64,000 bases of DNA from Pseudomonadota bacterium (GCA_035328405.1 DAOLIT010000028.1:577-64576); one strand, 5' to 3'; shown: positions 31,932-59,320, counted from the first letter of the stretch. Translations and numbers: made by a program. The notes: generated from the letters alone by a model not told the origin.

Positions 31932-32867
31932 TCATGTGCTCTGGTATGCCTGTGTGTCGTCTCTGTGCGGAGTGGCTTCACCTTGCAACAGAACAATGGT
32001 CCTCTCCGATTTCGTGCGAGCAGTCACAGTTTGGCTCGAACCTGAAAGGGGCTCGAACCCGAGGAACTGATTCGGTGCCAGCATCATGAAACTGCTTTGA
32101 TCGCGTAGGACGAGTTTTACATCCAAAAACAGACCCCGCGAATCCAAAGCAGGAAGAACGTGATCGTGCAGTCTGCGCATCGCTTCTATGGGCCATGGCC
32201 TTCCACAACCGCAAGTGGCATGGTCGGCATGCAGCGTAATAGAAACGGCAGAAACCAGAATCGTTGCAAACCCTCCGCAGACAGAACCGTCTCCGATGAT
32301 CCACTCTCCCAGAATCATGAAAGACGCCCGAACTTTTCGTTCGACAATCGATCTACCTACCGCAACCTCAAGTTCTGGGAAGACATGCGAAAACACCCAA
32401 TGTACGGTGTATGTAGAACGCAAACCCAGCAGGCTGAACAGCCGAGCCATAACGCTCAGCCAATTCCGGGATATGGTTTGATCGCGCTCTGGGAATGACG
32501 CTGCTGCAGTTCCCTTCAGCAGCCAGTGAGAAAAGAAACCCAGAAAATCAGACAAGGACTCCTCTTTTTGGAGGAGCAGAATCCTGCGAAAGTAGTTTGG
32601 GAGTGGTGTTTGAGGGGACAACCAACCCAAGTTCAGACAGACAATCGTTCGACGAGATGGCGCTCGCCGAAACCTCACAGAGTCCACCACGCATCCTGCA
32701 TGCAGCAGTGTGTCATGACTTTGAAATTCGATCTCTTCATCCTGATAGCCAAGAAACCTGAGCAAATCCACAAGTGCAAACAGATCGAAGTCGGTGGCCC
32801 TTTTCTCAATCTCATTCTCAACCAAATCATGAACCATTTCCGTCGGTGCAACTGGTTGTCCTGACAT
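31932..32867 (-). CDS. tssG: TssG (ImpH/VasB-like) baseplate protein, the only complete copy in the window
   Basis: The start at ATG 32867 (MSGQPVAPTEMVHDL...) lies 13 nt after the TssA-like stop; the track start at 32954 would overlap that gene by 74 nt. TssG-like blocks: DFDLFALVDLLRFLG...IEFQSHDTL...LNLGWLSPQTPLPNYF...LSDFLGFFSHWLL. Confidence 0.8.
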   Translation of the reverse strand: MSGQPVAPTEMVHDLVENEIEKRATDFDLFALVDLLRFLGYQDEEIEFQSHDTLLHAGCVVDSVRFRRAPSRRTIVCLNLGWLSPQTPLPNYFRRILLLQKEESLSDFLGFFSHWLLKGTAAASFPERDQTISRNWLSVMARLFSLLGLRSTYTVHWVFSHVFPELEVAVGRSIVERKVRASFMILGEWIIGDGSVCGGFATILVSAVSITLHADHATCGCGRPWPIEAMRRLHDHVLPALDSRGLFLDVKLVLRDQSSFMMLAPNQFLGFEPLSGSSQTVTARTKSERTIVLLQGEATPHRDDTQAYQST

Positions 32868-32880
32868 CGCATTCCCCGCG

Positions 32881-33984
32881 TCAAGTTGTCGCTTGAATGA
32901 ACAGTTCCAAATCAATCCGGTACAGGTCCATGAGTGCCCGCAACGCGAAATCATCCTTCACGTCCAGACTCGGAAGCAACTTGTCTGCATGCGCAACAAT
33001 GTTGCTAAAGTAGTCCCCAAAGATCGACGGCAAGAACAATCGGGGATCAAATTTTTCGATCGTTTCAGCGATGTCCTTGTAGATGATCGCGGCATGTTTG
33101 AAGCGACCCAAACGTACCAATCTGTTGAAGGCCCCAATTTTCTTGATGAGTGCGTGCATGAGAGGCGACAACGTGATCACCAAGGTCGGCTGTCCAGACA
33201 CTCCTGACACCACAGCGATCGGACCCGTTTTTCCGGTCGCTCCCCCTGATGCGTTTCCTGTTTCTGCATTTGGATCTTGTGGCTTCATGTGCTGTCTCTC
33301 CGAGGTAGGGAAGACTCCCTGCGTGTCATGGATTTCCAAACACTCATGTGAACTTCGATCTATCGGTGATATCTCCGACCCGTTCGCATTCCCATCCATT
33401 TTTGCAGACTCCTTTTTGGGGGATTCCTTCCGAGTGGTGGGAAGGTCGTGTAGGGACTTCTGTAGCTGTAATAATGCCGTCCTTGCCAAATAGGTTGGTG
33501 TTCCGGAAAACGTGTGCTCCAGATGTGCGATCACCTCGGCAAGCTTCCCAAGCGCGGAGGCCTGATTCGCCTTCTCCCAATCCCCCAGAAGCGTTTGCCA
33601 CGCCTTTGGATTGAGTTTCTTTGCAAACCTGAATTGGCTTTGAAGAGTGGTTGCAAAAAAGCGCAGCGCGCCATCCAGATGACGCAATTTGTTGTGCGCT
33701 GGTCCGACGAGGGAAAACTGTACCTCCAGTACATGCAGAGTAGCCTCAAACACCCGTTCCAGCGCCCCCATTCCTTGTTGATCAAGGACTGCATACAAGA
33801 GAACCCCCAATGTTCGTGCATCATACACACCGTCGCGCCAGAGTTTCTCTGCAATTTCTCCAGCGGGCACAAATTGATTGCGTTCGGCCATAGACAGAAT
33901 TTGATCCAAATCAGCGTCGATCGAGTTTGTTCCAACGACCTTCGGAGGTCCAAGCGGTTGTCGAAAAAAATCCAAGTCAATCAT
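32881..33984 (-). CDS. TssA-like protein (second copy)
   Basis: Exact copy (+32,330) of 551..1654. Confidence 0.5.
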   Translation of the reverse strand: MIDLDFFRQPLGPPKVVGTNSIDADLDQILSMAERNQFVPAGEIAEKLWRDGVYDARTLGVLLYAVLDQQGMGALERVFEATLHVLEVQFSLVGPAHNKLRHLDGALRFFATTLQSQFRFAKKLNPKAWQTLLGDWEKANQASALGKLAEVIAHLEHTFSGTPTYLARTALLQLQKSLHDLPTTRKESPKKESAKMDGNANGSEISPIDRSSHECLEIHDTQGVFPTSERQHMKPQDPNAETGNASGGATGKTGPIAVVSGVSGQPTLVITLSPLMHALIKKIGAFNRLVRLGRFKHAAIIYKDIAETIEKFDPRLFLPSIFGDYFSNIVAHADKLLPSLDVKDDFALRALMDLYRIDLELFIQATT

Positions 33985-34388
33985 GCCTCACTCCTTTCAA
34001 CCTTCGGCGTATTGCCAGACGGAAACGCAACTGCGCACGGAGCCGGGTCCGCGATTCGGATTTGTCCTCCTTCCGAACAAAGCAAAACCGCGTCTGTCGA
34101 TAGCACCGTCAACTTGACCAGTTGAACGACTTGTTCGCGCTGCGCCCATGTTCCCATCGGTTTAGGAACGCAAACAGGGGGACTCCCGCTTAGCTTCGAT
34201 CTGGCAACCACAGGAGGAGACCCACACCGCGAAAAGGGTGTGATGTTGGAACCGGGTTTCACGTCTTCTACGGTCGCAAATGGCTGTCCAGACGTACAAA
34301 AAACTCCGCGCGAAAGCACGACCAACGTAGACCCCCCTTGACCCCAAGTGCACACAAGTCTTGCTCCGTTGCGAACCCACTCACTCAT
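33981..34388 (-). CDS. DUF4280 PAAR-like protein (second copy)
   Basis: Exact copy (+32,330) of 1651..2058. Confidence 0.75.
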   Translation of the reverse strand: MSEWVRNGARLVCTWGQGGSTLVVLSRGVFCTSGQPFATVEDVKPGSNITPFSRCGSPPVVARSKLSGSPPVCVPKPMGTWAQREQVVQLVKLTVLSTDAVLLCSEGGQIRIADPAPCAVAFPSGNTPKVERSEA

Positions 34389-36292
34389 CCCATTCCCCCT
34401 TTCTTGGTGGCTCTCTGCGCGTCCCCTTTCCTCTTGTTCAAGACCGTTGCATTTGTCGTTACCCGAAGTGCATCCAGCAAACGAAAGGTCGGTTCTTCCT
34501 CTCTGTCTCTTAGTGTTCCGCGCAGAAACTCTCGTTCGCAAAAAGCAGCATCCACCTCTTTGCCATTCATTCTTGGGAACATCGCAAACTGTTCGATGAA
34601 ATCCGGCAGAGCGGAAGAACCCAACCGCTGTAGGATGACTTCTCGTACGATGGATTCCCTGACCGTATTTAGTTCACGTGCGACGGTGAGCGGCTCAGGC
34701 CCCGTAAACAGCAGAAGCACTATTCCGCCACGATCGCCCGGCTCACAAACCACCAAGGATGCTGCAAGAAACGGCAATTTTTGCACAACGTCCGTGACTT
34801 CCTGAGCAGGATACGGTCGCCCCCGTTTGCTCGGCAGATAAGTTCCACAGTATAGGTAGCCTCCTTCTTGCGAGGACAGAAGCAAACCACAACCCCTTTT
34901 ATGCGAATTCAACACGCCGATTTCGGAAGGCAGCCTAACTTTCCTGGATGACCCTGCGTTTGTCTCTGTTTCTGGCTCTGTTTCTGGCTCTGTTTCTGGC
35001 TCTGTTACACTCTCTGTTCCAGTCCTCGCTCCCTGCAATGTTCCTGGATATTCCAATGTGTACGTTCGCACAGGAGATACCCGCAAAAAGCGTGAAAAAG
35101 CGCCTTTTCTCCGCAACGAAAACAGCAGACATCCACCAATGGCCGAGTCATAAAGCCATGTTTGACATTCCGTATCCCGAAGGTCTGCACGATGAACAAA
35201 GTCATTCCAATGCATTCCTTCTGGACTCAGTGCTTCTATCAGACAGAGCCGAAGACCGAACTGTGCCCATGGTCTGGCACGAGGATGTTCAATCAGGACG
35301 CTGTCACGAAGTTGCTCTCCGACCAGCAACACATGAAGTTCGCACGGAAGACTCTTTTCAACCAGAGAATTGTGAAGCGACAAGGGGTCACAGTGTACAT
35401 ACGCTCCCCCATGAAACAGACAACACAGTATGAGCAGAGGAACATACTGCAAGGAGTCCGAACCCGGAGCTGCCACCGTCGATCCAGGCCACAACGACAA
35501 GTGCAAAAGGCCGTCTCTCATCAGGGACAACAAGACATCCCGCGCACGCAATTCTGTGGGTCCGGTGTTCTTGTCATCCCAACGATCAAACGGCGAAAAA
35601 AGAGCGAACACAGAGTCCTTGGGAGAATACGTATGCGACGTGTAGTGGTGATCGATTCCCAATATCGGCGTAGGAAGTTCTTCGACAAATAGGCAACGGT
35701 CGTGGAACGGGCTCAGAAGCGAAGAGTAACGCAAGGGAGTCGAGATCTTGGCATCGGGAACGGCTTGAATCCGTCTGTGCAAAAAATCCAAACCACGAGG
35801 AGGAAGGACAGTCACTTTCAGGCCCATCCTCAGCCCACTCAGCAGCGCAATGAGTAACTCTGGTTCTACATCCGAGATGATGCACAAGGCGTCTCCTGCT
35901 TTGAGTTGCTTGGCCTGCCATTTCTGACACCGTGCCGTACATGCCTCGTGCAATTCTTGATAACTCAAGCAAGACCAAAGCGCTTTTTCGTTCCCCGCAT
36001 TGCGTAGGGAAGAGCGGACACGTACCGCTTGGGAATCCATGGTTTGATACAGAAGTGCGGGTCGATTTGCATTGTGCGCGAGATGTCGAAGCACGGCATC
36101 GTGATACAGATCCACACCGCTGTGCATGTTGCTTTTGAGAGACGCAGGACACCGATCCAGATGCAGTTTGACCAGGGTAAAAAAGAATGCCTCCCGTGCT
36201 TTGCGCGTTTCCTCTAGCCACGGCATCCGGCGAAACAATCCGTCACCCGGTTGCGTGATTCCCAACAGATCGGCTGGTTCAAACTGTGTCAC
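34385..36292 (-). CDS. ANL-superfamily-like protein with degenerate P-loop (second copy)
   Basis: Exact copy (+32,330) of 2055..3962. Confidence 0.6.
   Translation of the reverse strand: MTQFEPADLLGITQPGDGLFRRMPWLEETRKAREAFFFTLVKLHLDRCPASLKSNMHSGVDLYHDAVLRHLAHNANRPALLYQTMDSQAVRVRSSLRNAGNEKALWSCLSYQELHEACTARCQKWQAKQLKAGDALCIISDVEPELLIALLSGLRMGLKVTVLPPRGLDFLHRRIQAVPDAKISTPLRYSSLLSPFHDRCLFVEELPTPILGIDHHYTSHTYSPKDSVFALFSPFDRWDDKNTGPTELRARDVLLSLMRDGLLHLSLWPGSTVAAPGSDSLQYVPLLILCCLFHGGAYVHCDPLSLHNSLVEKSLPCELHVLLVGEQLRDSVLIEHPRARPWAQFGLRLCLIEALSPEGMHWNDFVHRADLRDTECQTWLYDSAIGGCLLFSLRRKGAFSRFLRVSPVRTYTLEYPGTLQGARTGTESVTEPETEPETEPETETNAGSSRKVRLPSEIGVLNSHKRGCGLLLSSQEGGYLYCGTYLPSKRGRPYPAQEVTDVVQKLPFLAASLVVCEPGDRGGIVLLLFTGPEPLTVARELNTVRESIVREVILQRLGSSALPDFIEQFAMFPRMNGKEVDAAFCEREFLRGTLRDREEEPTFRLLDALRVTTNATVLNKRKGDAQRATKKGGMG
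34965..35006. repeat. 12-bp in-frame tandem repeat (TEPE)n (second copy)
   Basis: Exact copy of 2635..2676. Confidence 0.95.
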
Positions 36293-36744
36293 AGATTTTG
36301 TTCTCTTTTCCGTCGGAAAAAGCCGCTCAAAGCCAAGTCCAGTTCCTTCAGTAGGAGTCCAATCTCTCTCTTCACACTGACGCTGCTCGGACCTCTGTGC
36401 GCTTCATTCTGTTGCGAAGACAGAAGCGTTATTTGCTCACAAAGGGGCTTCCACACAGAGATCAAGGACAAACGATCCTCGGGGAAGACAGTGCGCAGGC
36501 GTTGCGCAAGCTTGACGAGCAGCTCGTCTGGTCTTTCCACGATTACATGCGATTGGATGGCCACCTGACGCAATTCTTCCGGCGTTTGTGTAGCCCGAGT
36601 ACGAGGCGCAAGACTCTCTTTCGGAAGCTCCTCCGCGAGGTCCTGTTCAACGCGACGAGTGGTTTCCTTGCAAGCAGGATTTGCACGTTCCCAGCGTTGT
36701 CGTAACTCTTGTGGATCAAAACGGAACCCCCAATCCTTTGGCAT
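36289..36744 (-). CDS. Hypothetical 151-aa protein (second copy)
   Basis: Exact copy of 3959..4414. Confidence 0.6.
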   Translation of the reverse strand: MPKDWGFRFDPQELRQRWERANPACKETTRRVEQDLAEELPKESLAPRTRATQTPEELRQVAIQSHVIVERPDELLVKLAQRLRTVFPEDRLSLISVWKPLCEQITLLSSQQNEAHRGPSSVSVKREIGLLLKELDLALSGFFRRKREQNL

Positions 36745-36808: not shown

Positions 36809-37516
36809 TTACAGGTTGGAGAAAACCAACAACCCACCGATAAACAAGGTCAAGAGACTCAACGAAGCCAAATAGTACCAAGCAGAAGAACGGCTTTTCT
36901 GTGCCACTTGCGGAGCTGGCGAAACCATGTGAATGAGTGCTTTGTCAGCGTGAGCTTGCAATTCCCTTGCATCGCGTCGCCTTTTCCTCTTCCGAATCGG
37001 ATTCACTGCTCCTGGGATACGCTCTGTGACCAGTGCCTTGTACCGAAGTAGCTTGCTGTTGTCAGCCCCGAATTTTCCAACAAAGCCGGATGCCAGGCAG
37101 TAATACAGAACTTCAAAAACCACTGAAGGGGTGTCTGGCTTCGCCAATCGTTCGTCGACAAAGTCATAGAAGACATCTCCTCCGTAATTGATCTGGAACA
37201 GATCGGATTGCAGCAGGAGCCAGCTAGTCTGTTGCTGTTTCGGTAGATGACTCATCACCATTTCATCGCAGAGCAAGACCAGTGGAAACATCACCAAGTA
37301 GACTTCGTTCTCGCCCATCTCTCGGGTCAGATTGTCCTTGAGTGTGTCAAGCTGCGTTTTGACCTCGCTGCGCAGACGATCCAGTGTCTCACTAGGAATC
37401 ATTGTTGCGACCCCATTGCGCTCTCTTGTTTTCTCTTTCTGATGCACCGTGCGTTCAAGGAGATTGGCAATATCTCGTCTGAGCATGATGATCATCTTCC
37501 ATAACGTGAGTTTCAC
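36809..37516 (-). CDS. tssL: TssL / DotU-family protein (second copy)
   Basis: Exact copy of 4479..5186. Confidence 0.75.
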   Translation of the reverse strand: MKLTLWKMIIMLRRDIANLLERTVHQKEKTRERNGVATMIPSETLDRLRSEVKTQLDTLKDNLTREMGENEVYLVMFPLVLLCDEMVMSHLPKQQQTSWLLLQSDLFQINYGGDVFYDFVDERLAKPDTPSVVFEVLYYCLASGFVGKFGADNSKLLRYKALVTERIPGAVNPIRKRKRRRDARELQAHADKALIHMVSPAPQVAQKSRSSAWYYLASLSLLTLFIGGLLVFSNL

Positions 37517-39213
37517 ACAGTTCTCCTTTGCGCTCGGGGAATCTCCGCATGTTTCAATGGAATCAGGTCAGGAGTCGTCCGAATGTCGACTCGTGCTTCG
37601 TAGTCCCACGCATCCAAAATGTTCGCAAGTTGCAATAGGTACTGCGTGAGCATCGGAGTATCCTGGTCATCATGAGGTGCGAGTTCGATGTGATACACAT
37701 GACGAATACCTGCGCCGCTGAGCGTTCCGTCGGGAACGATCGAATGGGTGATCTTGGAAAGGAGTTTGGTCATGCGCGCAAAGGGGCTCCGTTCCAAAGA
37801 GGCGAACATCTCCAATAGGTCTAGCAGTTCTTCTTTTTGCAACACCGGTTTCATTTTCAGGGATAGAAGGTACAAGAGACGATCTGGATCTTGACGCAGA
37901 GGGGAATCGAGTGACTGAGAAAGGAGACCGATTTGCCTAAAATCGAGACCCGCCGCCACTCGCTCAAGCGGAATCACCTGGACAGGACCCACGGCTCCAT
38001 TCACAAACAGTGGCTGATACCAATGCGCCTCGACCACCAACTGTTGGGGGTCCATGAATGCTTCGGGTCTGCGGATAATCAAGGAATACGAAGGAAAGCG
38101 AGTATCGCTTGTCTGTTCCTCGATTTCGTATGCCTGACGGAAGGTTCCCAACGCAGCATGCCCGAGCGGCTCTAGACCTTTTGCTGTCGTCCGATACACT
38201 CCCAAAGGCCGCTCCATCGCAAAAGTGGAATCATTGTTTAGGAAGCGAACAGGGTACTCGTCCTTGGTTCCATCACAATCGATCGTGCGGGAAAACGCGC
38301 GGTAACGATTGGCCACCGCCACGGTGTGTGGTCGGAATACGTCTCGATGCAAAGGTTGGTCGCGCGGAAAATCATGGTCCAAATCCATGCAAACATACAC
38401 TCTGTTCCATGTCTGTGTAGCAGGGGGAATCGTGATATACACCATAAGATCCTGCGACGGAAAATGGAAAAATGTACGGACCTGTTCGAGCGGGTTTTGC
38501 GCATTGTCTTCATACGGACGATCGAAGTACATTCCGAAAGTCACTTCACAGCGGACTCCACTCGTATTCGGTCCAAAATTCCCATCGTAGAACACGAAGC
38601 ACTCTTTCAAGTGTTTCCTCAGAAGATGATGCAATTTCAGGGAGGCTGGGTAGTGGTCCAGGTAGTTGATGTGTATGGGAATCGTTCCCAAATTGTCCCC
38701 CCGTTGATGCAGAGACAAGAACATCAGCACCAAACGGAACCCCTGTTTCGTCAATTGCAACTCAACACGAGCTAACGTAATCGGCACAACGCGCAGTTCC
38801 GAAAGAGTCTGGAACGATCCGACTGCACCGTCGAGGGTCCGAAACTGCATCGAACTCCCACGCGGCAGAGTCACCGTGTCTGTCATCTGCGGAGTAACGA
38901 CTGCCTGAAGCATCGTCATGCTGGGCAGAGGCTGCAAAATGAAGTGAAAGTAGGCCGACAGAAGCCGCTTCCAGGTCACAAACAGATTCCGCATCGTCGT
39001 CTGACGTGTACGCACCGAGCTGTACGCCAATGCTTCAATCAAACGCCTGACATCGGGGTCCTCCATACCAAGCTGGGCAGACGGATGTTCAAGTTGGTAG
39101 CGTACTCTTTCATCGTCGAGTAGGCGCAACTCCTCCAGCAAACTTTCCTGCACATTCCGGGTTTCCTTCATGCACCTGTGGCCTCTTTGCAAACGCTCAT
39201 CATTGCAACGCAA
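37513..39213 (-). CDS. tssF: TssF (second copy)
   Basis: Exact copy of 5183..6883. Confidence 0.85.
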   Translation of the reverse strand: MRCNDERLQRGHRCMKETRNVQESLLEELRLLDDERVRYQLEHPSAQLGMEDPDVRRLIEALAYSSVRTRQTTMRNLFVTWKRLLSAYFHFILQPLPSMTMLQAVVTPQMTDTVTLPRGSSMQFRTLDGAVGSFQTLSELRVVPITLARVELQLTKQGFRLVLMFLSLHQRGDNLGTIPIHINYLDHYPASLKLHHLLRKHLKECFVFYDGNFGPNTSGVRCEVTFGMYFDRPYEDNAQNPLEQVRTFFHFPSQDLMVYITIPPATQTWNRVYVCMDLDHDFPRDQPLHRDVFRPHTVAVANRYRAFSRTIDCDGTKDEYPVRFLNNDSTFAMERPLGVYRTTAKGLEPLGHAALGTFRQAYEIEEQTSDTRFPSYSLIIRRPEAFMDPQQLVVEAHWYQPLFVNGAVGPVQVIPLERVAAGLDFRQIGLLSQSLDSPLRQDPDRLLYLLSLKMKPVLQKEELLDLLEMFASLERSPFARMTKLLSKITHSIVPDGTLSGAGIRHVYHIELAPHDDQDTPMLTQYLLQLANILDAWDYEARVDIRTTPDLIPLKHAEIPRAQRRTV

Positions 39214-39249
39214 CTCTTTCTGACCGGCTATCCTGCTGCTCTCCCACTC

Positions 39250-47830: not shown

Positions 47831-47838
47831 GGCGATGG

Positions 47839-50077: not shown

Positions 50078-50620
50078 CTACGCAAGCACCGTTCGGGGGG
50101 CCAACTCCTTGCGCGACAAAAGCTTCAGATTCCCAAAGGGTTCAAGTTCCTTCCGCAGCTGCGCGCGTTCTGCTGCATTCCCAAGAATCTGTTGGAGCAG
50201 ATTGCGCACATCCTTGCGGTTGTCCACTTGAGCCATCATTTCAAGGAGCACTTTTCGCAGAAGGAGAAGCGACCGAATCTGCGGAATGTTGCTGGCGACC
50301 TCAGCCGGATTGAAAGACTTGCGGTTCGTGATGGGAATGTCGACTTCAAGCTCTCCAGCCTCGGGGTCGAGGTGATTTTTTGCGGCGAGCTTCAAACGGA
50401 TTTTCATGTTTTCCATGAGCTCGTCGATGTTCTTGGCATCCAGGTTGCGTAGCCGGCGCGTTTCCAGATCGACACTGCGATCGGTAGACGTTCCATGCGA
50501 CAAATCTGCCAGCACGATCAAACGAAACGGGAGTTCCACTTCCTTGAGCTGACCTTGCACATTGGTTTCGTAAGTCAGGTTGACGCGGGAGCGCGGGATC
50601 AATTGTTGAATCGACTTCAC
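50078..50620 (-). CDS. tssB: TssB / VipA (second copy)
   Basis: Exact copy of 17748..18290. Confidence 0.9.
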   Translation of the reverse strand: MKSIQQLIPRSRVNLTYETNVQGQLKEVELPFRLIVLADLSHGTSTDRSVDLETRRLRNLDAKNIDELMENMKIRLKLAAKNHLDPEAGELEVDIPITNRKSFNPAEVASNIPQIRSLLLLRKVLLEMMAQVDNRKDVRNLLQQILGNAAERAQLRKELEPFGNLKLLSRKELAPRTVLA

Positions 50621-50660
50621 GGTGTCCTCCTTATGGGGTGAGAGATACCGTGACTGTGAC

Positions 50661-50677
50661 AGCACTGACCATGCCAA
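50661..50677 (-). promoter_or_regulatory. Candidate sigma-54 promoter upstream of tssB (second copy)
   Basis: Exact copy of 18331..18347. Confidence 0.6.
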
Positions 50678-50783
50678 CTTCCCAATCACCGCCGCACTGC
50701 ATTCGGTCAAAACTTTGCAAGGGAAACCCGGTGTTTGGGACATGCCGAGAGCATTCATCCCGACGACAAACGCGGGAGTGGTC

Positions 50784-50815
50784 TGTGCGCTCAACATGCG
50801 CACACTGCGCGCACA
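50784..50815. promoter_or_regulatory. 11-bp-phased palindromic decamer array (second copy)
   Basis: Exact copy of 18454..18485. Confidence 0.6.
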
Positions 50816-50844
50816 TACTTGCTGTTGGGAAAGACATGTACCGT

Positions 50845-51297
50845 TTATGGGAGTCCCCTTCCCAAACGACATTCTTTGACTTGAGGAATGATCATTCCGG
50901 TTCGACCAAGCGGAACAGAAATCGTCCAGGGAAGTGGTGGAGGAAGCAGCAATTTCCAGCTCCCTGTCGTTGAATCCAGCAGCAAATAGATCCCCACAGA
51001 TTTGTCACTGGGAACGGTCAAAAACATCCTCCTTTTTTGATTCGGTTCAAGCAAGAGAGTCCGAATCACCGTCTTGTCTGGCTTCACTGCAAGCTGAACC
51101 ACATCCGCGTAACTTTCGTCGCGGTATTGTTCGGAAGAAACAGTCCGAACCAGCACATGCAGAGGCCTCCCCTGGTTTGTGTCTTGGTGGCTTTGGACCG
51201 TCACCCACATTCGCCAAGACGAACACCCACTTTGCAACAAAAACAATGCAACCAAACACCACCATCCAAAAGAAAATCGACGCAGCGCGGGGTTCAT
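50845..51297 (-). CDS. tssJ: TssJ-like lipoprotein (second copy)
   Basis: Exact copy of 18515..18967. Confidence 0.7.
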   Translation of the reverse strand: MNPALRRFSFGWWCLVALFLLQSGCSSWRMWVTVQSHQDTNQGRPLHVLVRTVSSEQYRDESYADVVQLAVKPDKTVIRTLLLEPNQKRRMFLTVPSDKSVGIYLLLDSTTGSWKLLLPPPLPWTISVPLGRTGMIIPQVKECRLGRGLP

Positions 51298-54200
51298 GGT
51301 GATGTAACCCGAAACAGCAACCAGGGATCGGGCGCGATCACAAAGCGAATCACTTGAACTTCTCCCGCTCCCTCATCGTGAATCCGCCACGTACTTTCCC
51401 CGTCGTTTTCCACAGTGCTTTTTTGCAGCAGCCGAAACAGACTCCACGCAGAATCGGCCACTTCCAACGTCTGCGTGTGTCTGCGTCCCGATTTGCTCGA
51501 TGTACTTTCGATTCCCACAAGCGCGGCCCCCTGATTCCACCATTCGATCGATACCGAATCCGCAGTCGTGCGCTGGTTGAGTCCATAGAAGGTATTTTTT
51601 CCTACGCGCAAAAAGGCCACTGATGGCTGTACTCCTGCACCCTCTTGCGCCCGTTTTCCTTGTACACCCCGAATCGTCAAACGGAGTGGTTGACGGCCTC
51701 CTTTTGCGTCGAAAAGTACCCGACTCAACTTTGCGATTTGGTTCACCGTTTTGAGCAACTCGGAAGGCAAAGGAAGGGCACCCAAACTGCTGCGCCGTGG
51801 TCGATACAAACCGTCTTGCAGCACAATTGCGGGTTCATAAAACGATCGAACATCTTGGAAAAAAGACCCACTGCTTTCGTTCAGCACATCGAGTTCAGAA
51901 GGCGCAACCTCACGTTCGGCGGAAGCGTGAAAGGGAAAACGCTGAAGAAGTGTCTGTAATTTTGGAAGAGCTTCTTTGTTCCAGTGGTCGGAAAGGGTCG
52001 TAGCAATGTCCTTTTCGCCTCGACGGTAAACGGCCAAGAAGGGGTCCATAAAGGGTTTGCGGAATGCGCCCACAATCCCTGCTTTGTCCAAGAATTTCTC
52101 TGCTTCAGAAAGAGGAGAACCATCCCCTGAACCGGATGGTTGCGACATCAAGAGGGCACTTTTACCAAGCGGTCCCAAACGATCTGCAAGACCTGTTTTT
52201 CCGTCGGGATTCTTTCCGTCGCCCTTGCTGTGTGAGCCCCACGGCGCATCCAAAGACTCGGCCAATTTGGCTATCGTGGACAAATAGGGTTCAAGCCCTT
52301 TCGGTTTCTCGTCACTCCCTTCCACAGTCGCATTCCCTGGCCCATTCCCAACCGTGTCATTCCCTTTCCCGGCGGACTTTGGCGGAGTGTCCGTTTTCTG
52401 TGTCTCCTTCTCTGTCACCTTCTCTTTTTGTGGGACTTCAGGATTCGGCTTTTCTCGACGACGCTTGAGCAAATCAGGATTCACAACCCGAACCAGGGGT
52501 TCAAATTCCGCAAGACAGACTGCCAGCGGTTTCAAAAACGGATCATCCAAACCCGACAAGGCTGCGTTTTCCGCCACGGTTTGTACATGCGCCACAAAAC
52601 GGGAGCCGGGTTTCACGATGTCTAGCAACGCGGTATGAACATCCTCGACGGAATGGCCGCTCCCTCGAATGTGAAAGTGATAGCTCAAATAGTATCGGGA
52701 CAGTCCTTTGCAGTACTTGTCTGCATACCCCTCGATCTCATTCCGAACCAAGTGTGTGAGTCGGATTTTGTCCTCGGGTCCAAGCGCCTTGCTTTCCGCA
52801 ACAGCCCTCCGCAATTCGCGCACCAATGGAAGGACTTCATGGTCAAACACCGTTCGGTTGTATTCGTCTCCCAAATCATCCGCAGGGAGTTCTCCGGTGC
52901 TCAAAAGATGTGCAATCCGTGGTCGGAGTTCCTCGTGGCTAAAGGGTGGCATATCGTGGCTGTGCCTGGACGGACGACACGATCGATCGCGACTGCTCTT
53001 TCCCGCATCGTCACAAGGGACACATTCCCCTCTTTTTCGCTTCCGTTCGGACACACAGCGGCAACACGTTTCTCGACTTGTATGGGAATGGGAATGCCCG
53101 CCTTGATGAACATGGTGAATGTGATGGGACAATAGCCACCGCTTTCGACTCCGCAAAAGAAGATCCAGCCACCCCTGTTCGCTGATCTCCAGGATTTTTC
53201 CATTCGGAAATGCAAAATGCGTGGGCTCTTGGGGGAGTGTGGATCTTATCGCAGAGACACCTGTTCGTTTCTCTTCTCCAGACGACAGTGCATTCACGTA
53301 GCGCAAGAGTTGATAAAGACTCATGTGCCTGTGTTTGCCGGATTGCGCGCTACTTTCTTCGATCAAGCGCAAAAGGAGTTCCAAGTTGGTCAGGTTGTCC
53401 ACCAGCCAAGGTTCAGGGAGGAGGACTCCTGCATCTCCCCCAAACAGTTTGTTCATGTCGAGCGGGGTTTCCTCTGCCAACATTTGATAGACGCGGCGCA
53501 ACACGCTTGCTCGTCGCACACGCTCGATTGTTTCGCGCAGATTCAGGGTCTTTTTTCGCAAGTTCTCGAGTTGTTCGTTGGAAATCGAAGGCTGCAAAAT
53601 CGCGTGCGCGATCGTTTGTACATACTCCTGCCACGGGCGAAGATCCGTCACGGGGTACTTCGCGGATTCGGTAGGAATCGGCGGCAAGAGGAGCAGAGCC
53701 TTGTCTTTCCAGGCTACCGGACTGTTTGCAACGTAGTCTGTCAGCAGATCCACTGGAAGAGACAACGTTTCTGAAAAATCGCTGCGCTGCGTATCCAAAA
53801 GAGTTCCGAGGGCGGTTCCTTTTGCGGCATACAGCGCCGCAAGTGCATACAGAATTTTGTCCCTTGCACGTTGACGCACACCCGATTCCAGCGCCGGTCG
53901 CAGATAACCTTGCCGCAATCCCTCCACAAAACTCTGTTCTGCGTCCGCTTTTTCCTTTCGTGCCAGCAAACGGAACAAACGAAAACGCTGCTCGTCTTGA
54001 CGAAAATGATCGAGAGCCTGAGCGGCTTCCCGTTCACTGCGGCGAACCACATCCGATTCCCGCGGTGAAGACAGCGATTCCTGAGCCCGCCTCACACTCC
54101 TCTCAAACGCCTCGGTTGCGTCGGTGGCCAGCTTTACTTTGTGCGCGTGCCTGTGTGTTAAGTACCAAATCGGAAAGGCCCCCCCGAATAAAAGAAGAAG

Positions 54201-55304
54201 ACTCAGCAACGTATGCAAGGGTCGAATGCCCAGCGCCAAAAACCAGCGCCAGATTCGCGTAAAGAAGCCGGGCGCTCGCGTTCCCTTGGCTAACACCGGA
54301 TCAAACGGATTCCCAACCTCTTCATCCGATGCAAGAGAGAAGAAGTACACAGCCTGTACATCGGGCCGAACAGAGGTTACTGCACCCTCGACAAGTGCTG
54401 TGATAAATGCGCGCACAGGCGTCATCAATTCCTGTGCTGAATGCAGTATCTCAATGCTGGCTTCAAACGGACCCACCGGCATGGTCGTCAGTGCGCGCGG
54501 CAGGTGTTTCTCATATCCTTGCAGAGCGGCCCCCAAACTGCTCTGCGCGTCGCCACCGGCATCCAGAACGAGTGGAATTTTGTTTTTGTGCAAAAAGCGC
54601 GAAAATTCCGAATACCCCGAAATCCGTTCCATGTTCGTCAGGCATAAACGAGTATGAATCGGTGCCCCATAGATCTCTGTAAGCAGATTGATTTTTCCCC
54701 GAATCAGCTTGGCTTGTTGTCGCAAAACATCGGGACTCATTGTGGACAGCACAGAGACCTTGAGAACGATGAGTACCGTCGGGATTTGTGCGGACGGAAG
54801 CGACGTTTTCCACAACTTTCGGAAACCATCGTGCGCTTCTCTGCTGGCCGATTGAAGCAGTGTTGAGGAAACTTCGTGTATCACGCACCGACTACCCAAA
54901 TAAATCTGCAAAAGGGGGTCAGCCGTATAACTTGGGAGGAACTGACTGGCTTGGCTCTGCCAATCGACACGCCGACTGATGAGCGCACTCTTGCCAACAC
55001 CAGGATCACCAAAGACCAGAAAGTGATCATAGTCCGAGAGTGCGACGCGAACACTGGCAGGAAGGGGTGCAAGAAAGCGCTGCCATATGGACAGAAGCCG
55101 TTTGCGGTTTGCTTGGTTCACTGCTCCTTGGCTGGGTCGTTCCGTAGGTGAACGTTTTCGAAACAGACGGACAACCAGATAGATCCCCCCGATCACGAAG
55201 GAAACAAACAGGATGGCGAGCAGAATCAGCGCGACAGTGTTCGTCCCACGAACCATTCCATCCGCCAACCCTGATGACATTCCGAGCATGGCTATCCCAA
55301 CCAT
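51294..55304 (-). CDS. tssM: TssM / IcmF-family protein (second copy)
   Basis: Exact copy of 18964..22974. Confidence 0.9.
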   Translation of the reverse strand: MVGIAMLGMSSGLADGMVRGTNTVALILLAILFVSFVIGGIYLVVRLFRKRSPTERPSQGAVNQANRKRLLSIWQRFLAPLPASVRVALSDYDHFLVFGDPGVGKSALISRRVDWQSQASQFLPSYTADPLLQIYLGSRCVIHEVSSTLLQSASREAHDGFRKLWKTSLPSAQIPTVLIVLKVSVLSTMSPDVLRQQAKLIRGKINLLTEIYGAPIHTRLCLTNMERISGYSEFSRFLHKNKIPLVLDAGGDAQSSLGAALQGYEKHLPRALTTMPVGPFEASIEILHSAQELMTPVRAFITALVEGAVTSVRPDVQAVYFFSLASDEEVGNPFDPVLAKGTRAPGFFTRIWRWFLALGIRPLHTLLSLLLLFGGAFPIWYLTHRHAHKVKLATDATEAFERSVRRAQESLSSPRESDVVRRSEREAAQALDHFRQDEQRFRLFRLLARKEKADAEQSFVEGLRQGYLRPALESGVRQRARDKILYALAALYAAKGTALGTLLDTQRSDFSETLSLPVDLLTDYVANSPVAWKDKALLLLPPIPTESAKYPVTDLRPWQEYVQTIAHAILQPSISNEQLENLRKKTLNLRETIERVRRASVLRRVYQMLAEETPLDMNKLFGGDAGVLLPEPWLVDNLTNLELLLRLIEESSAQSGKHRHMSLYQLLRYVNALSSGEEKRTGVSAIRSTLPQEPTHFAFPNGKILEISEQGWLDLLLRSRKRWLLSHHIHHVHQGGHSHSHTSRETCCRCVSERKRKRGECVPCDDAGKSSRDRSCRPSRHSHDMPPFSHEELRPRIAHLLSTGELPADDLGDEYNRTVFDHEVLPLVRELRRAVAESKALGPEDKIRLTHLVRNEIEGYADKYCKGLSRYYLSYHFHIRGSGHSVEDVHTALLDIVKPGSRFVAHVQTVAENAALSGLDDPFLKPLAVCLAEFEPLVRVVNPDLLKRRREKPNPEVPQKEKVTEKETQKTDTPPKSAGKGNDTVGNGPGNATVEGSDEKPKGLEPYLSTIAKLAESLDAPWGSHSKGDGKNPDGKTGLADRLGPLGKSALLMSQPSGSGDGSPLSEAEKFLDKAGIVGAFRKPFMDPFLAVYRRGEKDIATTLSDHWNKEALPKLQTLLQRFPFHASAEREVAPSELDVLNESSGSFFQDVRSFYEPAIVLQDGLYRPRRSSLGALPLPSELLKTVNQIAKLSRVLFDAKGGRQPLRLTIRGVQGKRAQEGAGVQPSVAFLRVGKNTFYGLNQRTTADSVSIEWWNQGAALVGIESTSSKSGRRHTQTLEVADSAWSLFRLLQKSTVENDGESTWRIHDEGAGEVQVIRFVIAPDPWLLFRVTSP

Positions 55305-55370: not shown

Positions 55371-56846
55371 CTACAATACTTGTCGTTCTCTCTTTGTATG
55401 TTGGTTCTTCGTTCTGTCTTTTCCCTTTCCATTACCCCTATTGTTATTTTTGTCGTGGGACTTGAGTTTGGTTGTACCGCTGTCCTTTTTGCCGATGTCC
55501 TTCACATTCTGTGTTTCTGTTTCTTCAGCATCTTTCGGCTTTGGGTTTGCCGCGAGTGCCGTCAGCACGACTCTTTCCGTGAGGTCTTTGCTCCGATCAC
55601 AGGGAATGCGGAATTCTGCATATCCCTCCTTTCGGATAGACAGAACGTCCACGGATCTTGCATAGGTTCGCACTTGAAAAAGGGGTGTCTGTCCCAAGCT
55701 TTGTCCGATGGCGTCAAAGACCTCCGCGCCTTGCGGTTCGCTGTCGATGCTCCAACGTACTTGTTGTGGAGTAGAAGACTGTCCCGATAGCAGAAGCCGC
55801 ATCACGATCCCGATTCCCAGAAGTCCTACGAGCAAAAGCAAACCTGCTCCAATTGCGACCCCACGATTTTCCGAAAGTGGGCGCAAGAGCATCGAAAATC
55901 CCCCTTCTGCGTCTTGCCGAAGACCAAAGGTTGGATTCCCCATCGGAAGGGATGGAAGATGTGACGGACTTGTATCCAGAATAGGAATGAGACCTGTGAC
56001 TGATCCGCTCAAACGACCCAGGGTCGCAGCGATTTCTGCTGCACTTGGGCGGGAATCCGGCTGTTTGGCGAGCATTCTGTTGACGAGTCCCAAAAGCTCT
56101 GCGGGAAGACCTGGAACTTTGCTTTCAAGTGCAGGCGGCATTTGGCCGATGTGCGATGCCATCATCGCGCTGTCCGCCTTCATGGCTTCTACAAAGGGGT
56201 GTTCACCGGAAAGGGCCTCAAACAACATCACGCCAAGGGAATACACATCACTACGATCGGTAACTTCACGAGCATCTCTGCACAATTCGGGAGACATGTA
56301 TGCTGGCGTTCCCATCGACACCCCCATTCGTGTCAGGGGTTGTGCGGTTGCGCTTGTGGCGAGTTTTGCGATTCCAAAATCGAGGATTTTGGGCCGCTCA
56401 CCGTCTGGTCCATCGGTGTCTGCAACAATCAGTACGTTTCCGGGCTTGAGATCCCGATGCACAATTTTTTTGGCATGTGCGGCTTGGAGTCCTGATGCAA
56501 TTTGACGAAAGGTCTTCATGGCCTGCATCGGGTCCATTGAACCTCCCTTGGTCATCCGCTGCCGCAGGGTTTCTCCTTCCAGGTACTCCATCACAATGTA
56601 TGGAGCACCCTCCTCCGTCGTGCCAAAGTCATATACATTGACGACGCTGGGATGATTGATGATGTTTGCGGCTCGCGCTTCGTTGAAAAAGCGCTGTACA
56701 AATTCGGGATCTTGCTGAAGTTCTTTGGCCAATGTCTTGATCGCGGCACGTCGTTCGATTTGCGGATGGAATGCTTCATAGACAGAGCCCATTCCCCCTG
56801 TTCCGATCAATCGGACAATTTGATACGGACCAATCTGTTTCTCCAA
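55371..56846 (-). CDS. Hanks-type Ser/Thr kinase with PEGA-like domain (second copy)
   Basis: Exact copy of 23041..24516. Confidence 0.95.
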   Translation of the reverse strand: MEKQIGPYQIVRLIGTGGMGSVYEAFHPQIERRAAIKTLAKELQQDPEFVQRFFNEARAANIINHPSVVNVYDFGTTEEGAPYIVMEYLEGETLRQRMTKGGSMDPMQAMKTFRQIASGLQAAHAKKIVHRDLKPGNVLIVADTDGPDGERPKILDFGIAKLATSATAQPLTRMGVSMGTPAYMSPELCRDAREVTDRSDVYSLGVMLFEALSGEHPFVEAMKADSAMMASHIGQMPPALESKVPGLPAELLGLVNRMLAKQPDSRPSAAEIAATLGRLSGSVTGLIPILDTSPSHLPSLPMGNPTFGLRQDAEGGFSMLLRPLSENRGVAIGAGLLLLVGLLGIGIVMRLLLSGQSSTPQQVRWSIDSEPQGAEVFDAIGQSLGQTPLFQVRTYARSVDVLSIRKEGYAEFRIPCDRSKDLTERVVLTALAANPKPKDAEETETQNVKDIGKKDSGTTKLKSHDKNNNRGNGKGKDRTKNQHTKRERQVL

Positions 56847-56886
56847 AATGACTAGTCTCCTTGATCAAGCTACATGTTGGGAACAC

Positions 56887-57828
56887 TCAACGAGGGAATC
56901 GTCTCCTGTGCTTTCTCTTGCCGGAAGGAGGAGGTTCAACTTCAGGGGAATCTGTCAACGGCGACGGTGGTGGCTCTACGACTGGAACATGAGGGGGAAT
57001 GTAGAGTGGAAGGATCGGGACGACTGATGGCACCTGTCTTTTCGCAGGGGCAGCGGTGTCTTCCTGTTTGGCTTGCAGAAACAGAGGTTGCAAACTGGGC
57101 AATGGTTTCACAGGTTCTGAACTCTGTTCCAACACCGACTTCGAGGGCCTGCGAAATGAGAAGGAGAACGTCGGCACACCCATAAGGAGAGCAGCGCTTC
57201 CACCCGCTACGAGACCAATTCCTAACGAGCGCGTTGAGTACACCTGTTCACAGACCAGAGCAGGGGCTATTGCATCGCGCGTACATGTTCCGTTAAGTCC
57301 CAACATACCACCCCCAATGCCGATTGCACCAAGGCCTAGGAGACCCGTCGTCACACCAAGGGGGCGCAACCAAATTGGCATCGGTTTCTCTTTGGCAACG
57401 TACAAGAGTTTCGTTTTCTCGATCACCTGCGGAGCATTCGCAAGCCGTTCCTTTTCACGCGCTTCCACAAGGAGTGCATCGAGTTCTGCGGCTGTCTCGG
57501 GAGTCATTCCCGGATGTACCTTCCGGTACAATTCGAGGTACACATGAGCCTCGCTCCACTTTCCAAGTTTGCGGTACGCTTGACCTATGTTGTACAGCAG
57601 CGCCGGAAGAGGGCGCACCGCATACGCCGCTTGCAAAAAGGGGATTGCAGCTTGGTAGTCTCCACTGCTGTACGCTTTGCGTGCGGCCTCATACGCCGAT
57701 GCAAAGCCTTCCCCCTTCGCCGCTAGGTCTTCCTCCTGTGCCGCGCAGTGTGCCTGCGGGATTTCGCAAAGAGAGAACACAAACACTGTCGTCTGTACAA
57801 TGTGTGCAAGAGGACTCTTCGTGGACAT
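56887..57828 (-). CDS. TPR-repeat membrane protein (second copy)
   Basis: Exact copy of 24557..25498. Confidence 0.7.
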   Translation of the reverse strand: MSTKSPLAHIVQTTVFVFSLCEIPQAHCAAQEEDLAAKGEGFASAYEAARKAYSSGDYQAAIPFLQAAYAVRPLPALLYNIGQAYRKLGKWSEAHVYLELYRKVHPGMTPETAAELDALLVEAREKERLANAPQVIEKTKLLYVAKEKPMPIWLRPLGVTTGLLGLGAIGIGGGMLGLNGTCTRDAIAPALVCEQVYSTRSLGIGLVAGGSAALLMGVPTFSFSFRRPSKSVLEQSSEPVKPLPSLQPLFLQAKQEDTAAPAKRQVPSVVPILPLYIPPHVPVVEPPPSPLTDSPEVEPPPSGKRKHRRRFPR

Positions 57829-57832
57829 CGTA

Positions 57833-59320
57833 TTACTTCCACAAATCCACTTGTACCTTCCCATCCGTCGTTGCTTCGGAATCCCTTCTTCGTCCTCCCT
57901 TTCCAGGTTTGGGTCCCTTTCCGCTTGTCTTTTTGTGGTCTATTGTCCCGCCGGAAGGAACCTTGTGTGAATCGTTTTTTACATCCAAATGTTCTGGTTC
58001 TATAACCGATTGGCTCAGATCAGGCAGGACCAGTGGAAAGGGCTTTTCCGATGGATTAGTAGTCGTTTGAGGGCTCGGAAGAGGAGGTTGACTTTTCTTT
58101 TGGGCGAAGAAAAACCCCGCAAGAACCACAAGAACTGCAAGCATGATCAACAGAAGTGATGGCGTTGTACGTTCTCTCTGGGCAGAGCCGGTCTGAATCA
58201 ATTCGCCACGCTTGCTTGCCCGATTTCCCGTCGTCAATTGAGATTCAAGGAGGCCGACTGGTTCCGTTACTTTTCGTTGTTGGTTGGTGTAGCCAAGGCA
58301 AGGGCGTTCGGAAATGGAGCCATCCGAAAGACCCGTTTGGGGGATGGTGGTCAGCGCGTCCACAAGCTCGGCCATCGACGGGCGATTTGCAGGTTGTTTG
58401 TCCAGCAAACGATGAACGAGTGCGTCGAGAGATTCAACGACATGGGGAACTCTGTCCTTCAAACGAGGCGGAGTGCCAAACATCTGCAACGCAAACAGTT
58501 CACCAGCAGAGTCCGATACAAAAGGGGGTTCACCATACAAGAGTTCATACAGAATGATTCCAATGGAATAGACATCCGTTTTTTCATCAGGAGGGGAAGA
58601 CGCACGACATTGTTCAGGGGACATGTACATGGGTGTGCCAAGGAGTGTCCCCGTTCGCGTTGCTGCGTTCCCATCGGGACGTGTCCCCTCGTCGGGTAGA
58701 AGCTTTGCGATCCCAAAGTCTAGGATTTTCGCTCTTTTCCCGCACGTTGCATCCAGGTCCTGCACCAGAATCACATTCTCCGGCTTCAAATCACGGTGGA
58801 TGATTCTTTTTGCGTGTGCCGCAGCCAGTGCAGAGGCCATCTGCGACACGATCTCTGTGGCACTGGTTCCTAAGTATGCTTCATCCTGAGCTTGTCTAAG
58901 CGACCTCCCGTCGAGATACTCCATCGCGATGAACGCTTCCCCCAGATCTGTTTTTCCGTGCTCCAAAATGCGCACGAGGGACGGATGCTGCACCATTCCG
59001 GTCGCTTTTGCCTCCAGGAAGAAACGATTCACGGCCTCCGGGCGACTGCTCAATTCAGGAAGCAGAACTTTGATTGCGGCTCTCTGTTGGTTGTCTGTGT
59101 CCAGGGCTTCGTAAACGGCTCCCATTCCCCCTTGTGCGATTTTTCGCACGACTCGATATCGACCCACCAACGATCCAATCACTGGGTCAGGAGGCTGGTT
59201 TGTGGGGGTGTTGCTGTCCACGTCGTGCCGTACCTCTTCGGCCCAATTCAGGGGACCGACCTTTGGCGGAAGCGAGAAAGAGCAAGCCCGGTGCCAAACA
59301 ACCGCTGCGGTCTTATGCAC
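57833..59320 (-). CDS. Hanks-type Ser/Thr kinase (second copy)
   Basis: Exact copy of 25503..26990, with the same start-codon caveat. Confidence 0.9.
   Translation of the reverse strand: MHKTAAVVWHRACSFSLPPKVGPLNWAEEVRHDVDSNTPTNQPPDPVIGSLVGRYRVVRKIAQGGMGAVYEALDTDNQQRAAIKVLLPELSSRPEAVNRFFLEAKATGMVQHPSLVRILEHGKTDLGEAFIAMEYLDGRSLRQAQDEAYLGTSATEIVSQMASALAAAHAKRIIHRDLKPENVILVQDLDATCGKRAKILDFGIAKLLPDEGTRPDGNAATRTGTLLGTPMYMSPEQCRASSPPDEKTDVYSIGIILYELLYGEPPFVSDSAGELFALQMFGTPPRLKDRVPHVVESLDALVHRLLDKQPANRPSMAELVDALTTIPQTGLSDGSISERPCLGYTNQQRKVTEPVGLLESQLTTGNRASKRGELIQTGSAQRERTTPSLLLIMLAVLVVLAGFFFAQKKSQPPLPSPQTTTNPSEKPFPLVLPDLSQSVIEPEHLDVKNDSHKVPSGGTIDHKKTSGKGPKPGKGGRRRDSEATTDGKVQVDLWK
59281..59297 (-). 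promoter_or_regulatory. Candidate sigma-54 promoter TTGGCAC-N5-TTGCT (second copy)
   Basis: Exact copy of 26951..26967. Confidence 0.65.

Follow-up and report, generated by a model that had tools for sequence, protein, structure and literature searches.

The stretch of DNA analysed here, called the window below, comprises 64,000 nucleotides of a genome deposited as Pseudomonadota bacterium (GCA_035328405.1, DAOLIT010000028.1:577-64576) and encodes a type VI secretion system (T6SS). Its source organism is an uncultured sludge myxobacterium of the Polyangia branch. The window consists of one 32,330-bp unit written twice, with no mismatch in the 31,670 positions compared at an offset of 32,330, so that the 32.33-kb unit proposed in an initial annotation proved to be an exact repeat. 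It corresponds approximately to bases 577-64,576 of NODE_30, a SPAdes contig of the ENA assembly ERZ795009 (64,763 bp), in which the two units are bordered by about 48 bp of flank on either side. Each unit holds 20 genes, namely an operon of 18 genes on the minus strand (running from 59320 to 31932) and two genes on the plus strand, which encode a sigma-54 activator and an NHL-repeat protein (Table 1). The operon is uninterrupted, as had been described, and its 18 open reading frames (ORFs) are all intact and closely spaced. The unit recurs at 99.1-100% identity in contigs from at least 10 samples. Judged from its genes, the T6SS of this region is contractile, complete and probably functional.

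Table 1. Features of the unit in the coordinates of the window, with the matches on which each assignment is based.
Feature	Position	Strand	Evidence or remark
7-bp core AGACCTG	31803..31809	.	Unit-to-unit junction; direct repeat around the integrated island; single at the empty site
TssG (IglJ position)	31932..32954	-	Pfam T6SS_TssG 2.9e-06; TIGR03347 weak; probable start 32867, giving 311 aa (311-aa gene call in other assemblies)
IglI-family protein, 367 aa	32881..33984	-	NCBIfam NF041244 IglI_fam E 9e-56, 190 bits (cutoff 100)
DUF4280 PAAR-like spike tip, IglG-type domain	33981..34541	-	Pfam DUF4280 9e-16; NCBIfam IglG weak
ANL-fold protein, degenerate catalytic motifs, 635 aa	34385..36292	-	AF2 model and Foldseek
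151-aa ORF	36289..36744	-	No Pfam/NCBIfam match
TssL/DotU	36809..37516	-	Pfam DotU 8e-18
TssF (IglH position)	37513..39213	-	Pfam T6SS_TssF 2.8e-22; TIGR03359 82 bits; NF041246 IglH_TssF weak
Giant spike protein, 2311 aa	39250..46185	-	Conserved-module map and module profiles
TssE (gp25-like)	46169..46555	-	Pfam GPW_gp25 5.6e-11; TIGR03357 47 bits
TssK, canonical type	46586..47863	-	TIGR03353 309 bits (cutoff 100)
IglC-like inner-tube protein, 206 aa	47839..48459	-	AF2 model, fold match 2QWU
TssC, sheath large subunit	48508..49995	-	Pfam VipB 1e-105; best PDB match IglB 373 bits
TssB, sheath small subunit	50078..50872	-	Pfam T6SS_VipA 6e-39; TIGR03358 144 bits; real start probably later than the ORF start
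TssJ-like lipoprotein, IglE type	50845..51297	-	Pfam IglE_N 4e-19, 69 bits (cutoff 26)
TssM with Walker A	51294..55304	-	IcmF-related_N and IcmF_C weak; TIGR03348 9e-12
Hanks-type Ser/Thr kinase 2	55371..56846	-	Pfam Pkinase 1.6e-53
TPR protein	56887..57864	-	Weak Pfam TPR matches
Hanks-type Ser/Thr kinase 1	57833..59320	-	Pfam Pkinase 1.6e-44; 462-aa product from start 59221 in other assemblies' gene calls
Sigma-54 promoter-like element TGGCACCGGGCTTGCT	59281..59296	-	Exact match
Sigma-54 activator (enhancer-binding protein)	59710..61308	+	Pfam Sigma54_activat 5e-35, HTH_8; copy 27380-28978
NHL-repeat protein, 834 aa, island's last gene	61378..63882	+	Pfam NHL 6e-35; copy 29048-31552

All ORFs of the unit were compared with the Pfam and NCBIfam profile libraries, applying the curated cutoffs. 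TssC (TIGR03355, 472 bits), TssB and TssK exceed theirs, while TssE, TssF, TssG, TssL and TssM match their own models with scores below the NCBIfam cutoffs. Both hallmarks of a T6SS are present, the contractile sheath of TssB and TssC and the baseplate of TssE, TssF, TssG and TssK (E, F and G by their Pfam families), and so is the TssJ-TssL-TssM complex of T6SS-i, in which TssM has weak, specific matches and a Walker A motif. The initially reported list of components thus holds at sequence level, but three of its labels had to be changed. The lipoprotein called TssJ is of the IglE type, being above the cutoff of Pfam IglE_N and below that of NCBIfam IglE (3e-13). The 367-aa protein called TssA-like belongs to the IglI family and has no ImpA_N match. 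The protein called VgrG is treated below.

Several canonical components are missing from the unit, in agreement with the initial annotation. None of its 20 ORFs encodes a double-AAA+ protein of the Clp/TssH kind, the sigma-54 activator being the only AAA+ protein. Likewise, no ORF of the unit matches Hcp (Pfam T6SS_HCP PF05638, TIGR03344), a canonical VgrG with fused gp27/gp5 domains or, in Pfam, the ImpA_N domain of TssA, and no small effector/immunity-like gene pairs occur in it. Neither ClpV nor Hcp was found in the 48 kb that could be read of an 82,370-bp contig into which the unit is integrated (see below). The claim of a divergent T6SS, with neither ClpV nor an Hcp recognisable by sequence in the unit, is therefore upheld.

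However, the place directly after tssC, where hcp is usually found, is not empty. It holds an ORF of 206 aa that had been left out of the initial list. The statement that nothing resembles Hcp is correct as far as sequences are concerned, since phmmer, Pfam and NCBIfam provided no link of this protein to Hcp or IglC and no PDB sequence matched it; it does not extend to the fold. An AlphaFold2 (AF2) model of the protein (pLDDT 77.6, pTM 0.76) yielded a single significant fold match in the PDB, which was IglC (2QWU, E 3e-05, probability 1.0, TM-score 0.56, full length). The matches that came next, tube proteins from other contractile systems, had non-significant scores. The protein has 23 close homologues, and in 63 of 80 related loci the gene after tssC encodes a homologue of ~190 aa. 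In an exhaustive profile search, the family amounted to 395 representatives of 50%-identity clusters. Based on its predicted structure, we regard the 206-aa protein as an IglC-like tube protein. Some representatives of the family are much longer (P0156, P0271, P0277 and P0285, 648-1460 aa), one of them with three matched stretches, and could represent fusions of a tube protein with extension domains.

The 2311-aa protein formerly labelled VgrG has no Pfam or NCBIfam match anywhere, its ~1000-aa C-terminal extension included, and according to a module map only two parts of it are conserved across the family. One is a PdpA-like module (aa ~330-800, 43786-45198), which in most loci is a separate protein of ~540 aa and whose profile matches Francisella PdpA (6U9E_A) alone (E 2e-05). 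The other is a short VgrG beta-helix module (aa ~1120-1300, 42286-42828), a separate protein of ~196 aa in most loci, whose profile matches the VgrG beta-helix 8GRA (E 3e-06) and, over nearly the full length, the short Francisella VgrG (6U9E_B, E 4e-04). Because the two module profiles match PdpA and VgrG, the spike is better described as a fusion of a PdpA-like protein and a short VgrG with long extensions. Its N-terminus, linker and C-terminal extension are specific to close relatives, and the C-terminal extension, which is conserved only in the closest one (37% identity in L019), is the sole obvious cargo candidate. Relatives at 61-62% TssC identity are organised differently: their short VgrG-like module forms the N-terminus of proteins of 1219-1568 aa (L023:15985-20688, L024:11262-14918) and their PdpA-like protein is separate. 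Consequently, the spike extensions appear to be variable, as in 'evolved' spikes, and only in the clade closest to the window is PdpA part of the fusion. The spike gene also shows a strongly negative AT skew (-0.24 to -0.30) on the plus strand, especially at 40000-44000, and encodes low-complexity charged repeats (KDRGKDRG..., ETPKGTAKETPKGAAKE...).

Among the accessory parts, the Pfam models IglE_N and DUF4280 (59 bits) and the NCBIfam model IglI_fam are all matched above cutoff, by which the IglE, IglG and IglI counterparts that characterise T6SS-ii are present, while the Francisella-specific equivalog models of IglE and IglG stay below their cutoffs. DUF4280 itself is widespread (PMC5349215). 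The 635-aa protein adopts a full ANL fold in its AF2 model (pLDDT 75.6), for which Foldseek returned acetyl-CoA synthetase (E 7e-22, TM-score 0.62). Activity as an ANL enzyme is unlikely because the P-loop, YGxTE and catalytic-Lys motifs are absent in all 37 homologues; the protein thus looks like a pseudo-enzyme, stripped of every canonical adenylation motif, that was recruited as a T6SS component. It probably has a structural role. The gene was found in 53 of the 80 loci and adjoins the DUF4280 gene in the window, just as iglF adjoins iglG in the Francisella pathogenicity island (FPI). The product of iglF, with 67.9 kDa (PMC5924787), is of similar size.

To place the locus among its relatives, a scan with one genome per species was performed, which detected 151 relatives, and 80 loci were fetched. 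The nearest of them come from metagenome-assembled genomes (MAGs) of uncultured Myxococcales/Polyangia (61-82% TssC identity), and the MAG at 82% carries an orthologous cluster with the same content. The remaining loci, at 50-57% TssC identity, belong to Desulfobacterota, Planctomycetota, Methylococcales, Lentisphaerales and Myxococcaceae and include the complete genomes of Syntrophus buswellii and Cystobacter fuscus. A common gene set, including the order tssF-tssL-tssG, is shared by all 80 loci. The typical arrangement is ATPase-tssM-tssJ-ANL-tssB-tssC-tube-tssK-tssE-PdpA-like-VgrG-like-tssF-tssL-tssG-IglI-like, plus DUF4280, and the window's block ANL-DUF4280-IglI-tssG is standard in Myxococcaceae. 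It is correct that five genes separate tssF from tssG in the window (tssL, the 151-aa ORF, the ANL-fold gene, DUF4280 and the 367-aa gene). To call this order scrambled is not, as it is common to the 80 loci and hence the norm of the family. Relatives such as Syntrophus buswellii DM-2, Cystobacter fuscus Cbf 10, Methylobacter psychrophilus Z-0021 and Myxococcales MAG-83 have the same full gene set as the window, with the IglC-like tube, the PdpA-like/short-VgrG spike and the IglI-family, DUF4280 and ANL-fold proteins. Most relatives differ in keeping the PdpA-like and VgrG-like genes separate, and in many of them a gene for a ClpB-like ATPase precedes tssM, whereas the Polyangia branch of the window has kinase/TPR genes in that place, a fused giant spike and an island as carrier.

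The ATPases of the relatives bear on the question of how the sheath is recycled. An ORF with two Walker A motifs occurs in 28 of the 80 loci (631-1404 aa, most ~850-980 aa) and lies directly upstream of tssM in 24 of these 28. All seven cluster-linked ATPases tested, from several phyla, match ClpB (TIGR03346) over the full length with 1066-1163 bits (cutoff 1232) and ClpV/TssH (TIGR03345) with 771-805 bits (cutoff 885). ATPases upstream of tssM were found among the loci L026-L098 (for example L029:540-3137), and neither curated cutoff is passed. Since the ClpB scores exceed the ClpV scores, the cluster-linked ATPase would be a distinct paralogue nearer to ClpB, and from sequence comparison it looks like a dedicated ClpB-like paralogue of this T6SS family. 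In the window and in L019-L022, kinase/TPR genes (in L020 and L021 an NHL gene as well) take the position of the ATPase, and an ATPase of this kind is absent. Francisella recycles its sheath with ClpB (PMC5481754). As this is so, and as tssM adjoins a ClpB-like ATPase in many relatives, we infer that a chromosomally encoded ClpB-type ATPase most likely serves the window's system, by analogy. The host ClpB-type unfoldase suggested initially is thus still the best guess.

A Francisella type had been excluded by the initial annotation, yet several lines of evidence point in this direction. Among solved sheaths, IglB is the best match of TssC, at 373 bits, compared with 322-334 bits for the P. aeruginosa, V. 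cholerae and M. xanthus sheaths. The putative tube protein encoded after tssC is modelled with an IglC-like fold, the spike joins a PdpA-like module and a short VgrG, the IglI family and IglE_N are above cutoff, the PAAR-like tip is a DUF4280 protein like IglG, and a ClpV is absent from the cluster while relatives possess a ClpB-like ATPase. The gene order agrees too: the FPI is arranged as iglABCD and iglH-dotU-iglI-iglJ, and tssB-tssC-tube-tssK corresponds to iglA-B-C-D, tssF-tssL-...-tssG parallels iglH-dotU-iglI-iglJ, and the IglI-like gene directly precedes tssG as iglI precedes iglJ. For the correspondences of the components see PMC5924787. In contrast to Francisella, TssK, TssE, TssF and TssG are detectable here by canonical T6SS-i models, which IglD, IglH and IglJ are not. 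Further differences are the kept Walker A motif of TssM, the window's fusion of PdpA and VgrG with large extensions, the conserved ANL-fold pseudo-enzyme, the presumed control by a sigma-54 activator together with Ser/Thr kinases, the hosts, which are free-living Myxococcota and members of other environmental phyla instead of Francisellaceae, and the position of IglB outside the family's clade. PdpC, PdpD, PdpE, IglF and AnmK gave no model match in Pfam or NCBIfam, libraries that may lack some of these models. Compared with the canonical T6SS-i of V. cholerae, P. aeruginosa (H1) and M. xanthus, the locus shares TssB, TssC, TssE, TssF, TssG, TssK, TssL, TssM and a TssJ-like lipoprotein, but Hcp, a gp27/gp5-type VgrG, TssA and ClpV/TssH are lacking in the unit.

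Consequently, the locus fits neither the strict definition of T6SS-i nor that of T6SS-ii. We propose, with a probability of about three in four, that it is a member of a broad and barely described T6SS family that stands between canonical T6SS-i and the T6SS-ii of Francisella. Its nearest characterised relative appears to be the FPI-encoded system, while a baseplate and membrane complex of T6SS-i type are kept. The T6SS-iii of Bacteroidota and the T6SS-iv of Amoebophilus, which have TssN/O/P in place of a TssJLM complex or lack a membrane complex altogether, do not apply, since TssJ-like, TssL and TssM proteins are present; in this respect the initial verdict, that the system is not of a Bacteroidota type, stands. 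For a similar reason, the presence of TssJ, TssL, TssM and TssK, an extracellular contractile injection system or phage-tail-like particle was dismissed.

Some findings weigh against such an intermediate position. TssB, TssC and TssK pass canonical T6SS-i models, and TssM carries its Walker A motif (GDPGVGKS at residue 99), by which it differs from Francisella PdpB, which has none (PMC5014421). Over 451 aligned columns and with three canonical references only, mean TssC identity is 43% between IglB and the family and 38-40% between the family and the canonical sheaths, while IglB is 31-35% identical to the canonical sheaths and the sheath of the locus itself only 35-38%. In a neighbour-joining tree of TssC the family is monophyletic and IglB falls outside it (95 of 100 bootstraps), though this tree, too, contains three canonical references and leaves the subtype sets i1-i5 unsampled. 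The comparison thus indicates proximity to IglB, and a sister relationship is not demonstrated. The link of the tube protein to IglC is structural only, with a TM-score of just 0.56 and a model built on a shallow alignment of 22 sequences, and a profile of 60 sequences of the tube family did not detect IglC in the PDB. The match to PdpA is modest as well (E 2e-05), covering ~190 of 540 profile positions. Finally, ClpV and Hcp were looked for in the unit and in 48 kb of the 82-kb contig, and the use of ClpB is an inference.

Part of this evidence would also suit an ordinary, merely divergent T6SS-i that is split, its canonical clpV and hcp genes being located at other chromosomal sites. The unit is chromosomal, other loci would be available to it, three of its proteins pass the canonical equivalog models, and T6SS-ii has itself been found nested within T6SS-i in a TssC tree (PMC13098142). 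However, the hcp position already holds a tube gene, the spike, TssJ and IglI-family parts are Francisella-like instead of canonical, the ATPases of related clusters are nearer to ClpB than to ClpV, and the 48 kb read of the 82-kb contig are free of ClpV and Hcp. We therefore consider a split T6SS-i unlikely. Even less probable is a decaying, non-functional remnant that lost ClpV, Hcp and TssA. That ClpV, TssA and canonical Hcp and VgrG cannot be detected by sequence in the unit, and that the spike contains long low-complexity stretches, might be taken as signs of decay, but 18 of 18 operon ORFs are intact and tightly packed, identity across many samples is 99.1-100%, an orthologous cluster of equal content exists at 82% TssC identity, and for the seemingly missing parts there are non-canonical counterparts, which the 80 loci share.

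By homology, the system might be assembled as follows. An IglE-type TssJ lipoprotein, TssL and TssM would anchor the system in the envelope and TssE, TssF, TssG and TssK would form the baseplate. The spike would comprise a PdpA-like hub and a short VgrG beta-helix, fused in the 2311-aa protein and capped by the DUF4280 PAAR-like tip, with the C-terminal extension as putative cargo. Within a sheath of TssB and TssC the 206-aa protein would serve as inner tube, and the IglI-family protein and the ANL-fold protein, which is devoid of catalytic motifs, might act as conserved accessory or assembly factors. Once contracted, the sheath would be recycled by a ClpB-type ATPase encoded on the chromosome.

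Expression of the system would probably be driven by a sigma-54 promoter through the divergently encoded activator, under the control of the two Ser/Thr kinases. A perfect -24/-12 element (TGGCAC-N5-TTGC) precedes the 462-aa start of kinase 1 by ~60 nt and lies opposite the divergent activator; it falls inside the ORF if the 495-aa start is used. The number of sigma-54 matches in the window is not above chance and therefore only the position is suggestive. The activator comprises a sigma-54 AAA+ domain and an HTH, and its N-terminus is weakly FHA-like, with a match to FHA (17.6 bits) that is below cutoff, so that an FHA domain was not assigned. Together these genes suggest control of a sigma-54 promoter by kinases and an FHA-like module, which recalls the PpkA/Fha1 pathway of canonical T6SS-i.

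Besides its gene content, the setting of the locus is unusual. The unit is present once, with 100% identity, in the 82,370-bp activated-sludge contig, with ordinary chromosomal genes on either side, which include those for a GH77 glycosyl hydrolase, a methyltransferase, a STAS protein, an aconitase and others. There it interrupts a Ser/Thr-kinase gene at the codons of the catalytic loop (HRDLKPEN): the left flank ends with ...ATT CAC AGA GAC CTG and the right flank begins with AAG CCG GAG AAT, which encode IHRDL and KPEN, respectively. Joining both kinase fragments restores one ORF of 421 codons, for which a 100%-identical protein (P0036) exists. The 19-kb contig of this protein (L099) represents the empty site, with the same neighbours on both sides and a single AGACCTG. 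Its flanks agree with those of the occupied chromosome at 100.000% identity over 8,929 + 7,176 bp (0 mismatches in 16.1 kb). The unit-to-unit junction, GGATTGACAGACCTGTGAAAAAAAACTGG, is carried by the window. Thus the occupied, the empty and the unit-to-unit state are all found in public assemblies (window, L011, L015, L099). These comparisons indicate that the unit is a discrete chromosomal island within a host kinase gene and was recently mobile. The 'complete element' of the initial annotation is hence an island embedded in the chromosome and no self-standing replicon, and its gene content does not bound what the cell has available.

Of the features of an integrative element (own recombinase, tRNA/att site, inverted repeats) none was found, the 7-bp direct repeat alone being present. 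Neither integrase and transposase nor other recombinase families were matched by any of the 20 ORFs in Pfam or NCBIfam, and the ends of the unit contain no tRNA, no terminal inverted repeats and no kinase remnants. Homologous exchange with the island's own kinase genes was rejected, as their HRDL codons differ in DNA and are without AGACCTG.

Could the 32.33-kb circle instead be an element that exists autonomously like a plasmid or phage, or is the two-fold repeat a pure assembly artefact without biological meaning? The exact repeat does come from a single SPAdes contig, NODE_30, which is the only one of the contigs read to span the unit-to-unit junction. However, replication, partition, integrase and phage genes are lacking in the unit, and a 100%-identical copy is integrated between housekeeping-like genes of the 82-kb contig, on which grounds a plasmid or phage was discarded. 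A repeat of 7 bp is far shorter than any assembly k-mer, and therefore the junction must occur in reads. In addition, contigs of at least five further samples break off precisely at 31803 or 31809, which is what two coexisting continuations at the junction would produce. We thus regard both versions as highly improbable. The junction patterns had no match in the metagenome_contigs collection, a negative that is uninformative because this collection does not cover the JGI contig L099 (3300028647), which carries the pattern verbatim.

The chromosomal island, as we prefer to read the unit, resembles known cases. The skin element of B. subtilis and the nifD element of cyanobacteria interrupt genes, can be excised and encode their own recombinase. 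Like them, the island is a large element within a coding sequence, with a clean empty site that holds an intact ORF and a junction consistent with a circle. Unlike them, it contains no recognisable recombinase and its cargo is a whole T6SS. The junction may represent an excised circle or, after a single recent insertion, a tandem copy.

One might speculate further and combine both aspects: an undescribed, phylum-spanning class of T6SS, served by ClpB-type instead of ClpV ATPases, that is the environmental sister or the source of the supposedly Francisella-only T6SS-ii, and a reversible island that acts as a kinase/T6SS switch. In this scenario, which we offer tentatively and hold to be rather doubtful in its entirety, excision would occur at the catalytic-loop codons with the 7-bp sequence as core and a recombinase encoded off the island. 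If true, a programmed DNA rearrangement would turn the kinase on when it turns the secretion system off, and vice versa. Independent of this, a T6SS island that has no recombinase gene and yet is seen with clean junctions of all three kinds (occupied, empty and unit-to-unit) is an unusual case of mobility.

In reviews up to 2026, T6SS-ii is described as unique to Francisella (PMC6745524, PMC12955703), and IglH and IglJ are reported to have no BLAST-detectable homologues outside this genus (PMC9600919). Our literature searches, whose coverage was incomplete so that a prior description is possible, revealed no IglC-like, PdpA-like or T6SS-ii-like systems outside Francisellaceae. The existence of the models 'IglI_fam' (NCBIfam) and 'IglE_N' (Pfam) tells that curators have met such proteins. 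A system that unites Francisella-type parts with a recognisable canonical baseplate would be an evolutionary bridge and could explain the origin of the Francisella system. Furthermore, comparison with this locus and its 80 relatives, which have PdpA-like and IglI-family homologues detected by sequence, an IglC-like tube detected by fold, and IglE-type and IglG-type parts, would help to assign functions to those Francisella proteins that are enigmatic. The family has cultivable, non-pathogenic carriers (Cystobacter fuscus, Syntrophus buswellii, Methylobacter psychrophilus, Desulfobotulus alkaliphilus), in which the use of ClpB for ClpV and the roles of the IglI-family and ANL-fold proteins are testable.

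The last gene of the island encodes the NHL-repeat protein, which has a lipoprotein-like N-terminus. A homologue with 47% identity lies within the clusters L020 (L020:618) and L021 (L021:443), between the TPR and kinase genes, and the 834-aa protein may be part of the secretion system.

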